DNA from: a virus
Lineage: Duplodnaviria > Heunggongvirae > Uroviricota > Caudoviricetes
IMG/VR virus record: IMGVR_UViG_3300031087_000527
Location: 145,384 to 209,383 of that record
Direction: 5' to 3' (one strand)
Length of the DNA stretch: 64,000 bases
In this document: positions 24,756 through 25,820 of the stretch, one piece after another
How positions within the stretch are numbered: position 1 is the stretch's first letter
How the letters are laid out: each line of letters starts with the position of its first letter
Program-made: the position numbers and the translations under genes
Notes under the pieces: model-generated
Told to the model about the DNA's origin: nothing
Databases searched by the model: none
What the model saw: the letters and a program-made list of their open reading frames with translations, nothing else

Positions 24756-25820
24756 TTATGCGGCTGTTCTGTGTTCCTTTTCAATATCATCAAGATCATG
24801 TCGAATATTGTTTAGCGTTTTAGCTGTCTCCTCGGAGTAAGTCGTATTCTCATAGACAGCCATGATGATATTATCAATAGAGTTCTTCATACATTCTATT
24901 TTCATTCGTTGCTCTTTGGATGATGTGCTAATTGTAGAAAGTGCCAGATTAGTTCGCTCTATCATTGTCAGCATTTCATGGATGTAAGCCGCGTTTTTAT
25001 TGTTGAGTTTGAATGTATCTTCTATTTGAGAGGATGTATCATTCACAAGTGCCTTGATTTCCTGAGCAGAATCCGCACAGCTTTTGGCTAACAATCTCAC
25101 TTCATTAGCTACAATTGAAAATCCTCTGCCGTGATCGCCCGCTCTTGCAGCTTCAATAGAGGCATTCAGAGAAAGAAGATTAGTTTTAAAAGCCATCTCA
25201 CTAATAAAGTCGGATATCTTTTTAATCTCCAAAGACTGGTCCTTTATGGTGCTTGTAGAGTTTGTCATAAGTGAAACATTCTCTATGGCTTCCTGAACAC
25301 CAGCAAGCGTCATGGAAGCTAATGAAAAGGCCTGATTGGACTCCTGTTCATTGTGTGAGGCGACCTGATAAAGCTCATTCACGCTGTATGCGGTTTTCTC
25401 AACAGCACGGCTCTGTGTTTCATTTCTGGAGAGTAGTGCGAGATTGCCTTTATCCAGTGAGATAAGACTGTCATTAAGACGCTGTGAGGCTTCCTGCTGC
25501 TGAGTTGCCCATTGGCTTAACATTTCTCTGACTACATCAAGATCAGGAGAGCAAAATGCGCTCTTACAGAAGTCTTTATTGCTAAGGTTATGAATATCTT
25601 TACGTAATAAGGCTAATGGGTTAATCAGATTAACCGTAATGTAATGCCGAATAAAAAGTGACGCAGGTAATAGCAAAAAAGGAATAGCGGAAAATAATAT
25701 CAGAGATGTTGATATATCTCCGGTTAAATAAAATACAAAAGGAATAAAAGCATAAAATGAAAAAATAAATAATACCGATGAAGCAACAGCCCTAACAGAA
25801 ATATCTCTTATGTGTTTCAT
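24756..25820 (-). CDS. methyl-accepting chemotaxis protein-like transducer (two N-terminal TM helices, coiled-coil signalling domain)
   Basis: Minus-strand ATG preceded by AAGGAT. Highly conserved MCP signalling core [45 protein letters not shown]. No large periplasmic ligand-binding domain. Confidence 0.85.
   Translation of the reverse strand: [354 protein letters not shown]

Follow-up and report, generated by a model that had tools for sequence, protein, structure and literature searches.

A pared-down chemoreceptor gene of jumbo-phage-like genomes and its possible action on the host chemotaxis array

Why should a bacterial virus carry the gene for a chemoreceptor? The question is raised by a 64,000-nucleotide (nt) stretch of the viral record IMGVR_UViG_3300031087_000527 (positions 145,384 to 209,383), referred to here as the window and numbered from its own first letter, in which a methyl-accepting chemotaxis protein (MCP) is encoded. 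An initial annotation of this DNA had described a minus-strand open reading frame (ORF) of 354 amino acids (aa) with a nearly standard MCP signalling core, and had suggested that it serves to manipulate host chemotaxis or to sequester CheA and CheW during infection. The ORF was present in the ORF list exactly as described. The comparisons reported here show that little more than the membrane anchor and the part that engages the signalling machinery of the host is left in this copy, and the virus probably interferes with the swimming of the infected cell. An even chance is given to the proposal that the phage receptor, having neither input nor adaptation, joins the arrays of the host and biases or jams CheA signalling.

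Architecture of the window MCP

The MCP assignment was borne out by a strong match to the Pfam profile MCPsignal (PF00015; residues 179-339, 115.6 bits against a gathering cut-off of 34.6, E = 2.9e-33), and the 32-residue motif that had been taken for an almost textbook signalling core was confirmed at residues 216-247. In the AlphaFold2 model of the protein (mean predicted local distance difference test score, pLDDT, 86.8), helices at residues 9-32 and 36-80 are followed by a long antiparallel hairpin made of helices 92-226 and 228-353, both with pLDDT above 90. The coiled-coil flanks proposed for the core motif thus appear as a single long antiparallel hairpin. A phmmer search against PDB sequences placed residues 120-334 on residues 282-496 of the receptor Tsr (8c5v/6s1k; E = 1.3e-26) with two 3-residue gaps that cancel each other, and a strictly gapless overlay gave 31.6% identity over 215 aa. 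The C-terminal arm, from the tip glycine G228 to the end, is 126 aa long, which equals 18 heptads. The window MCP falls into the 36-heptad (36H) class, of enterobacterial-receptor type; 599 of 644 enterobacterial receptors are in this class (PMC4742279).

In alignments, the hairpin tip, with the conserved motif EAARAG..GRGF, is near-invariant across the family of phage proteins to which the window MCP belongs. Twelve tip positions of Tsr, which we take to be trimer or CheA/CheW contacts (F373, I377, L380, N381, V384, E385, R388, E391, F396, V398, E402 and R404), were compared with the window MCP, and all twelve were identical or conservatively replaced. The residues for interaction with CheW and CheA, singled out in the initial annotation as worth inspecting, would therefore seem to be retained.

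Inspection of the methylation sites had a largely negative outcome, the canonical sites being mostly lost. The Tsr methylation pairs EQ (296/297), EE (303/304), EQ (310/311) and EE (492/493) correspond to ET, EK, NE and EE in the window MCP, and the last of these, E330-E331 (Tsr E492-E493), is its sole near-consensus site. The strict consensus used, [ASTG]2-x2-[EQ]2-x2-[ASTG]2, was found in no member of the phage family, whereas a Proteus MCP has two such sites. The positions of the sites vary between phage lineages. The hinge glycines of Tsr, G340, G341 and G439, are replaced by A, I and A (the first two being A178-I179). The protein stops at the end of the bundle, at about Tsr residue 516, and therefore has no flexible linker and no NWETF-type tether for CheR and CheB. 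The bundle contains no indels among the phage lineages, which are only 28-41% identical. By these comparisons the adaptation apparatus of the window MCP is degraded.

At the other end of the protein, a short cytoplasmic motif, DISVR, precedes the first transmembrane (TM) helix; it is conserved in the family alignments, with S8, V9 and R10 invariant. The loop between TM1 and TM2 (TGDIS, residues 33-37) is about five residues long in a Kyte-Doolittle plot and forms a turn of three residues in the AlphaFold2 model. There is therefore no periplasmic domain in the window MCP, and no Pfam sensor domain was matched in it. Hydropathy and the model agree with the description of two N-terminal TM helices that are separated by a very short loop and have no periplasmic sensor between them.

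A search for the HAMP domain, also advised in the initial annotation, was negative: no Pfam HAMP match was obtained for the window MCP, even at E<=10 on the isolated N-terminal 132 residues. What remains is an AS1-like helix with a conserved P68 and a shortened AS2. Compared with all other family members, the lineage of the window has a deletion of about 10 residues at the end of AS1 and in the connector, and an alignment (hhalign) of the family profile with a Proteus mirabilis MCP showed a 12-column gap at the HAMP connector in the window sequence alone. The relatives at about 40% identity give sub-threshold Pfam HAMP matches (E = 0.003-0.11). One of them, P0002, aligns over residues 57-363 with Tsr 210-516 with zero net gap (E = 2e-41), a span that takes in the end of TM2, the entire HAMP and the entire bundle. 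The family profile aligns with the P. mirabilis MCP in like manner. The 14-residue connector of P0002 (residues 81-94) is modelled with pLDDT of about 78-83, against less than 50 for the 11-residue connector of the window MCP (residues 81-91), after which the next helix is six residues shorter than in P0002. All 15 listed members of the 90% cluster of the window protein, in which members of the same length are 91.5-100% identical, carry the deletion and read NKDFCK[SKT]AF[CH]SPDL at this place. Because the deletion is common to all of them, it is not an assembly artefact.

Family, cassette and carrier genome

The window MCP matches phrog_8572, a phage protein family of unknown function (E = 5e-42). 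A word-indexed search of 5.8 billion proteins returned one cluster at 97% identity, three at 39-41%, and then 581-aa Proteus MCPs at 28-29%. When all of 1.84 billion representatives were searched with a profile, 233,039 MCPs were found. P0004 and P0001 scored 636 and 617 bits, and P0150, P0151, P0152 and P0154 (all 362-365 aa) 386-291 bits; after the family came a sharp break in score and then a continuum of Tsr-like receptors of about 550 aa near 210 bits. About six 50%-identity clusters make up the family among these representatives. Its short members share the N-terminal ISVR, a TM hairpin with FIP and PF.LL, the HAMP signature FGxNCAGKLIP, the invariant tip and an indel-free bundle at whose terminus they end. 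In a neighbour-joining tree the family was monophyletic in 88% of 200 bootstraps, the window lineage forming its deepest and longest branch. A scan of JGI metagenomes yielded one close copy and one 39% relative; two further JGI loci, L021 and L022, were rejected as members, being ordinary high-GC bacterial MCPs. An IMG/VR scan with a neighbouring 396-aa protein, carried out to size the clade, gave no match. Just below the family in the profile search stand three high-GC proteins of unusual architecture (P0153, P0155 and P0156; 785-834 aa), in which two complete short-MCP modules, each with TM hairpin, HAMP and bundle, are arranged in tandem.

Motifs specific to the family were found in none of 185,579 GTDB species genomes, where only generic tip matches (Nitrincola and a Bacillota metagenome-assembled genome) were seen. 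The closest cellular cousins found, which among full-length proteins from outside phages also match the family profile best, are short chromosomal MCPs of Citrobacter freundii (WP_181625845.1, 388 aa) and Cronobacter (WP_007699113.1, 418 aa, ending in NWETF). They share with the phage family an N-terminal motif (MLNNISVRT in the cellular proteins), a TM pair that encloses at most a small periplasmic domain, the HAMP signature FGxNCxGxLxP and a 36H bundle. They differ from it in having C-terminal tails of 25-35 aa (with NWETF in Cronobacter), canonical-looking methylation motifs, in some cases hinge glycines, an ordinary amino-acid composition and a chromosomal location, and their identity to the window MCP is 23-27%. 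Salmonella Tip (STM1657), a receptor whose function is unknown (PMC4742279), is possibly a similar short MCP. The signatures that the Citrobacter and Cronobacter cousins share with the family at the N-terminus and in HAMP indicate an enterobacterial source, and the phage MCP appears to be derived from a short, sensor-poor enterobacterial MCP that was then pared to hairpin, HAMP and kinase-control bundle.

The initial annotation had named disruption of the ORF in related phages as an outcome that would speak against it. No listed relative of full length had a broken ORF (the few listed sequences that are shorter come from short contigs), and the gene was retained in all related phages examined. 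By the method of Nei and Gojobori, the ratio of non-synonymous to synonymous change (dN/dS) against the copy at locus L003 was 0.055 (56 synonymous and 13 non-synonymous differences), and ratios of 0.03-0.07 were obtained for six further pairs in two lineages. By these ratios the MCP gene is under strong purifying selection. The synonymous differences are unevenly distributed. The first 48 codons (25677-25820, minus strand) show no nucleotide difference from L003 (L003 and L019 were compared). Per 100 nt, the 5' half of the gene has 0-6 synonymous differences; most of the 3' half has 9-15, and the last bin, which extends beyond the stop codon, has as many as 27. This pattern could reflect recombination or a constraint at the nucleotide level.

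The MCP gene is one of 12 minus-strand ORFs among the 80 of the window and lies opposite in strand to its neighbours. A ribosome-binding site of the GGAGG or GAGGA type occupies the same place before the start codon in the relatives, and a terminator directly follows the stop codon (Table 1). Upstream of the gene lies an AT-rich spacer of 335 bp (25821-26155), which encloses a conserved block, TTATTAATTATTTTTTCTATGTTATT. The block is kept at loci L001, L003, L004 and L006 and accompanies the MCP cassette; the 64 kb hold a single occurrence where 0.01 would be expected, and the block is not a repeated promoter class within the 64 kb. It is a candidate promoter or operator.

The placing of the gene in a phage accessory region, as first supposed, is supported by its surroundings: the loci are syntenic parts of jumbo-phage-like genomes, and the cassette sits in a variable slot. 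The relative locus L001 is colinear with 25-38 kb of the window (synteny of about 13 kb, 67-73% nt identity), and the same gene order is seen on an IMG/VR contig, with the MCP opposite in strand to its neighbours in every case. At L005 the two genes that flank the window MCP adjoin each other and the MCP lies beyond them, and at L004 the MCP adjoins homologues of window genes that are about 22 kb away. With its counter-strand position, its own Shine-Dalgarno sequence and terminator, its specific upstream block and its variable slot, the MCP gene has the make-up of an autonomous accessory ("moron"-like) cassette. No CheA, CheW, CheY, CheR or CheB gene was found in the 64-kb window. Neither the MCP nor five neighbouring proteins gave a PADLOC defence-system match, and membership of the MCP in a defence system was rejected for that reason.

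Table 1. Positions of the MCP gene, its flanking signals and the parts of its product in the window
Feature	Position	Strand	Basis
Complete MCP coding sequence, 354 aa, ATG start	24756..25820	minus	ORF list and Pfam MCPsignal; stop codon 24756-24758 included
Shine-Dalgarno sequence AAGGA	25828..25832	minus	Read from the sequence, 7 nt before the ATG
Intrinsic terminator	24733..24754	minus	9-bp stem AAAAGCCTC/GAGGCTTTT and then a T-run, directly after the stop codon (terminator scan and sequence)
Conserved upstream block TTATTAATTATTTTTTCTATGTTATT, 26 nt	25850..25875	minus	About 30-55 nt before the MCP ATG
TM1, about residues 11-32	25725..25790	minus	Kyte-Doolittle hydropathy; AlphaFold2 helix 9-32; family alignments
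TM2, about residues 38-58	25647..25709	minus	Hydropathy; AlphaFold2 helix 36-80 continues from TM2
HAMP remnant, about residues 59-107	25500..25646	minus	Alignments, hhalign, AlphaFold2
N-terminal arm of the bundle, about residues 108-227	25140..25499	minus	phmmer alignment to Tsr 8c5v/6s1k; gapless register
Equivalents of methylation sites 1-3: E134-T135, E141-K142, N148-E149 (N-terminal arm)			Tsr register
Hairpin-tip core, residues 216-247	25080..25175	minus	Invariant alignment columns; comparison with the Tsr tip
C-terminal arm of the bundle, residues 228-354	24759..25139	minus	Tsr alignment; AlphaFold2 helix 228-353

The nature of the carrier was addressed from the window and from the contigs on which relatives of the gene lie. 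The window holds 12 scattered tRNA genes (2693-21955) and has 68 of its 80 ORFs on one strand. Its G+C content is about 30-43%, and about 39% around the MCP gene. Pfam matches are few and PHROG matches are mostly to families of unknown function. The neighbouring 396-aa protein matches proteins of Pectobacterium phage CBB, Cronobacter phage GAP32 and Serratia phage BF, and also of KVP40-type Vibrio and Aeromonas phages, at 32-38% identity. Among 50,697 phage records no near DNA match was found for 23-28 kb of the window, and 1-25 kb gave tRNA matches only. A copy of the MCP gene with 100% nt identity lies on ENA contig ERZ27247428:k141_35101 (294,057 bp, MEGAHIT), a 98% copy on a 215,248-bp JGI contig, and a 39% relative on a 341,648-bp IMG/VR viral contig. 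A 98%-identical member is named in NCBI as a protein of Serratia sp. Se-RSBMAAmG (227,478-bp contig; WP_282994242.1 is 98% identical to the window protein), and members of sister clusters are named there as Shigella flexneri and E. coli proteins. The phage origin assumed at the outset is supported by the IMG/VR contig of the relative, the jumbo-phage homologues of neighbouring proteins and the 12 tRNAs. No integrase was seen in the 64-kb window, which is not proof of a lytic lifestyle, and no capsid or large-terminase gene was seen there either, the only hallmark-type match being a weak one to a small-terminase-subunit PHROG (E = 1.5e-6). The MCP lineage probably belongs to jumbo phages of about 215-340 kb that are associated with Enterobacterales, by the names of the assemblies with Serratia, E. 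coli and Shigella.

Other features of the window were recorded as well. A TnpB-like ORF of 486 aa (29917-31377, plus strand; Pfam Cas12f1-like_TNB, PHROG transposase) has no counterpart in L001, which is colinear in other respects, and looks like an insertion of the insertion-sequence type into the phage genome; no close relative of it was found in GTDB species genomes. Six tandem ORFs of 350-368 aa at 55182-61830 (plus strand), the first without a PHROG match, have the look of a paralogue array. ARAGORN predicted a tRNA with a four-base anticodon (agaa) at 9688-9764 (plus strand), which could resemble a frameshift suppressor or have decayed from a copy of the tRNA-Phe genes beside it. A Pfam survey of 78 window ORFs brought up a Peptidase_M49 protein (E = 1e-55) and PilS/N_methyl type IV pilin-like, ankyrin-repeat, GmrSD_N-like and glycine-zipper proteins, and a Shufflon_N protein is encoded nearby at L001.

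Proposed action on the host array and alternative explanations

Bundle length, tip and anchor, which are what joining an array needs, are preserved in the window MCP, and what sensing and adapting need has decayed; this makes a receptor of fixed output the most economical reading. During infection the phage MCP would be made from its own cassette and inserted into the inner membrane. It would mix there into host trimers-of-dimers and bind CheW and CheA, as might be expected because its length matches that of host receptors and its tip is essentially host-like. Within the array it would contribute a fixed output, without normal sensing or adaptation, because a ligand domain, a CheR/CheB tether and a glycine hinge are missing, the methylation sites are eroded and, in this lineage, HAMP is truncated. 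Such an output would bias or jam the control of the CheA kinase across the cooperative array, and the swimming of the infected cell would be changed. In the 2014 work of Ames, Zhou and Parkinson, Tsr without HAMP is said to be kinase-on and AS1 deletions kinase-off, neither being responsive to CheR or CheB. With opposite outputs from two such deletions, the sign of the effect of the phage MCP, whether kinase-on (tumbly) or kinase-off (smooth), is not predictable from sequence. Possible benefits to the phage are the exclusion of flagellum-dependent phages, the holding of the cell in place, or its dispersal. A stronger version, in which a purpose-built "Trojan" receptor of Enterobacterales jumbo phages, matched in length and tip and lacking sensing, adaptation and (in this lineage) HAMP control, infiltrates the array and locks swimming for the benefit of the phage, is put forward tentatively and at somewhat below even chance.

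Several observations weigh against the proposal of an input-less, array-joining receptor. In most family members HAMP is apparently intact, which suggests that these may still depend on signal input. Some chromosomally encoded bacterial cousins have loops just as small, so that the lack of a sensor is compatible with ordinary receptor function and does not by itself make a jammer of the protein. Between the window and the L001 lineage, syntenic neighbours (a 331-aa ORF and an SPFH protein) are 62-63% identical and the MCP 39%; the greater divergence of the MCP implies that constraint outside the tip is loose. Outside the tip the MCP, judged by these identities, evolves quickly over long times and is tightly constrained within lineages. 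No sigma-70 consensus was recognised upstream of the MCP on the strand of the gene. An Enterobacterales host is likely, as read from the names of the assemblies that carry the sequence and from these names only, and Shigella, one of them, is non-motile. Finally, copies or relatives of the MCP lie on contigs of 0.45-1.3 Mb (records P0126, P0135, P0137, P0138, P0345, P0328 and P0124, and locus L013), including contigs of 801,531, 866,249, 947,947 and 982,256 bp and two independent ones of near-equal size, 1,299,059 and 1,299,621 bp. The exact protein of the window is encoded on that of 866,249 bp. A 340-kb phage does not account for contigs of 0.8-1.3 Mb, and some doubt about the nature of the carrier follows from them. 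These could be chimeric assemblies, chromosomal integrations or a replicon of more than 1 Mb. The 21 kb examined of L013 (ERZ27286967:k141_122135, 1,299,059 bp, with the MCP at about 845.8 kb) have the usual phage-like gene order, the same as on the 341,648-bp IMG/VR contig, and a search of 5,426 complete E. coli genomes and 72,556 plasmids with this locus returned nothing.

Foremost among the rival explanations is that the protein really senses, as a minimal receptor that would give the infected cell a new taxis toward conditions that favour the phage. A stimulus such as temperature, cytoplasmic pH, a membrane-active compound or proton-motive force could act on the hairpin, HAMP or bundle, or the input could be passed on by a separate membrane partner, as sensory rhodopsin does for HtrII. 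The full-length HAMP of most members, which aligns with that of Tsr and is confidently modelled, is what such a sensor would show, and an equally minimal topology is seen in the chromosomal receptors of Citrobacter and Cronobacter, which are presumably functional. The family-invariant DISVR and proline-containing TM motifs (FIP, PF.LL) suggest that the membrane part does more than anchor. A partner for it might be sought in an SPFH/Band_7 membrane protein, encoded nearby in every lineage on the strand of the MCP. Against this, the lineage-specific erosion of methylation sites and the loss of the CheR/CheB tether make adapting gradient sensing unlikely unless host receptors assist, and in the window lineage HAMP is truncated, yet the gene is under strong purifying selection. 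A same-strand partner gene of the HtrII/sensory rhodopsin kind was looked for and rejected, there being no conserved adjacent neighbour on the same strand. A working sensor is on balance unlikely.

The SPFH/Band_7 gene itself lies at 31530-32432 of the window (minus, the minority strand it shares with the MCP), at 6570-7475 of L001 and at 6559-7464 of L013, and its distance from the MCP is 2.5-5.7 kb in every lineage. On the unrelated high-GC bacterial contig L022 a Band_7 gene comes directly after the MCP. A functional link between the two genes is possible; the co-location is loose.

A role outside chemotaxis would make of the protein a self-clustering, pole-seeking membrane scaffold, or a sink that draws off CheW/CheA, or some other protein of the host, without forming signalling units. 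The sequestration suggested in the initial annotation is of this kind and would fit a receptor that has neither tail nor sites. Most of the conservation lies in the tip, the N-terminal motif and the membrane motifs, with drift in the remainder of the bundle, and no other Che component is encoded in the 64-kb window, both of which would suit a scaffold or sink. The bundle, on the other hand, keeps exactly the same length without indels across lineages of 28-41% identity, as co-assembly with 36H receptors requires; this exceeds the needs of a scaffold or sink, and no phage partner is evident. Such a role is considered quite improbable.

That the carrier is not a lytic jumbo phage and the MCP a resident receptor of a chromosome, integrated element or replicon of more than 0.8 Mb, or that the MCP is a functionless recent passenger, is very unlikely: copies on 0.8-1.3-Mb contigs (two of almost equal size), the NCBI names Serratia, Shigella and E. 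coli, and the want of PHROG matches in most large window ORFs would be in its favour; against it stand the gene order shared between the 1.3-Mb and 341,648-bp contigs, the absence of the locus from complete E. coli genomes and plasmids and of the family from GTDB species genomes, neighbouring genes that match jumbo-phage proteins only, and a G+C content of about 37-38%, far below the much higher values of Serratia, Shigella and E. coli, and dN/dS of 0.03-0.07 and retention across deep divergence speak against a passenger.

Relation to known systems and meaning for phage biology

The proposed fixed-output receptor can be set beside several known systems. Tsr (PDB 8c5v, 6s1k, 1qu7), Tar, Tap and Tcp have the same 36H bundle class, no net gaps and a near-identical tip, and the HAMP of Tsr is equal in length to that of the relatives of the phage MCP. 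Unlike Tsr, the phage MCP has no periplasmic four-helix ligand domain, no C-terminal linker and no NWETF; three of four methylation pairs and the hinge glycines are lost, and in this lineage HAMP is truncated. In NCBIfam it is closest to the models for Tap, Tar, Tcp and Tsr, at 110-133 bits against equivalog cut-offs of 900-947; the scores are far under the cut-offs, and the protein is therefore not an orthologue of any named receptor. Aer (PDB 31cj; match E = 8.4e-21) resembles it in having a membrane hairpin without a periplasmic domain, HAMP, a 36H bundle and no pentapeptide. In a preprint, Aer is described as signalling without methylation-based adaptation (bioRxiv 10.64898/2026.05.25.727702). 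It differs in its N-terminal PAS-FAD sensor, which talks to HAMP, whereas the phage MCP has about 10 cytoplasmic residues before TM1 and no visible input module.

Engineered cytoplasmic fragments and HAMP deletions of Tsr are alike in that normal input is missing while CheA and CheW would still be engaged, but these are laboratory constructs and the phage MCP may be a natural version. The Tsr derivatives of Ames, Zhou and Parkinson (2014) were reportedly locked in kinase-on or kinase-off output and unresponsive to CheR and CheB, and the phage MCP is predicted to behave likewise.

Other phage MCPs have a different build. That of Escherichia phage A4 (A4_379; Asteriusvirus, 355 kb; L007 3266-4678) has MCPsignal in 470 aa, but a hydrophobic N-terminus of about 170 aa with a multi-spanning look; A4 is the only jumbo phage among the listed Escherichia matches in the phage collection. 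That of Vibrio phage vB_VmeM-Yong XC31 (290 kb; L008 2161-3993) has MCPsignal, but with dCache_1 and HAMP in 610 aa. Neither groups robustly with the family (28% bootstrap for A4), which points to independent acquisitions.

Precedents for host motility altered by phages, often with a block to superinfection, come from inhibitors of the type IV pilus. Tip and Aqs1 of Pseudomonas phages are among them, and a phage inhibitor named PlzR switches off this motility organelle of the host (PMC11461919). Such inhibitors are small and act on pilus assembly proteins; they have no sequence or structure relation to the phage MCP and concern another organelle and mechanism.

Full-text literature searches found no study of any phage-encoded MCP; the nearest literature, and the only motility genes found discussed, concerned viral motA and motB (PMC8290583). 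MCP genes annotated in a few jumbo phages and a PHROG family were already known. What is new is an independently acquired family of phage MCPs with a distinctive pared-down architecture.

Should the phage MCP be an ordinary minimal receptor, the list of phage accessory genes would grow by one modest entry. Few signalling machines are understood as well as chemoreceptor arrays, and we know of no virus that targets them from within. If the proposed action is true, a virus would here be seen for the first time to reprogram bacterial chemotaxis from inside the receptor array, and nature would have supplied, in a phage receptor that only docks into arrays, an experiment in dominant interference with them. 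The family would also offer natural variants for receptor biophysics (without hinge glycines, without methylation sites, with or without a HAMP connector) that suit assays by Förster resonance energy transfer or with tethered cells in E. coli. A further question would be whether the direction and manner of swimming of infected cells are under phage control, which would bear on phage spread, on flagellum-dependent superinfection and on the dynamics of infection in gut and soil.

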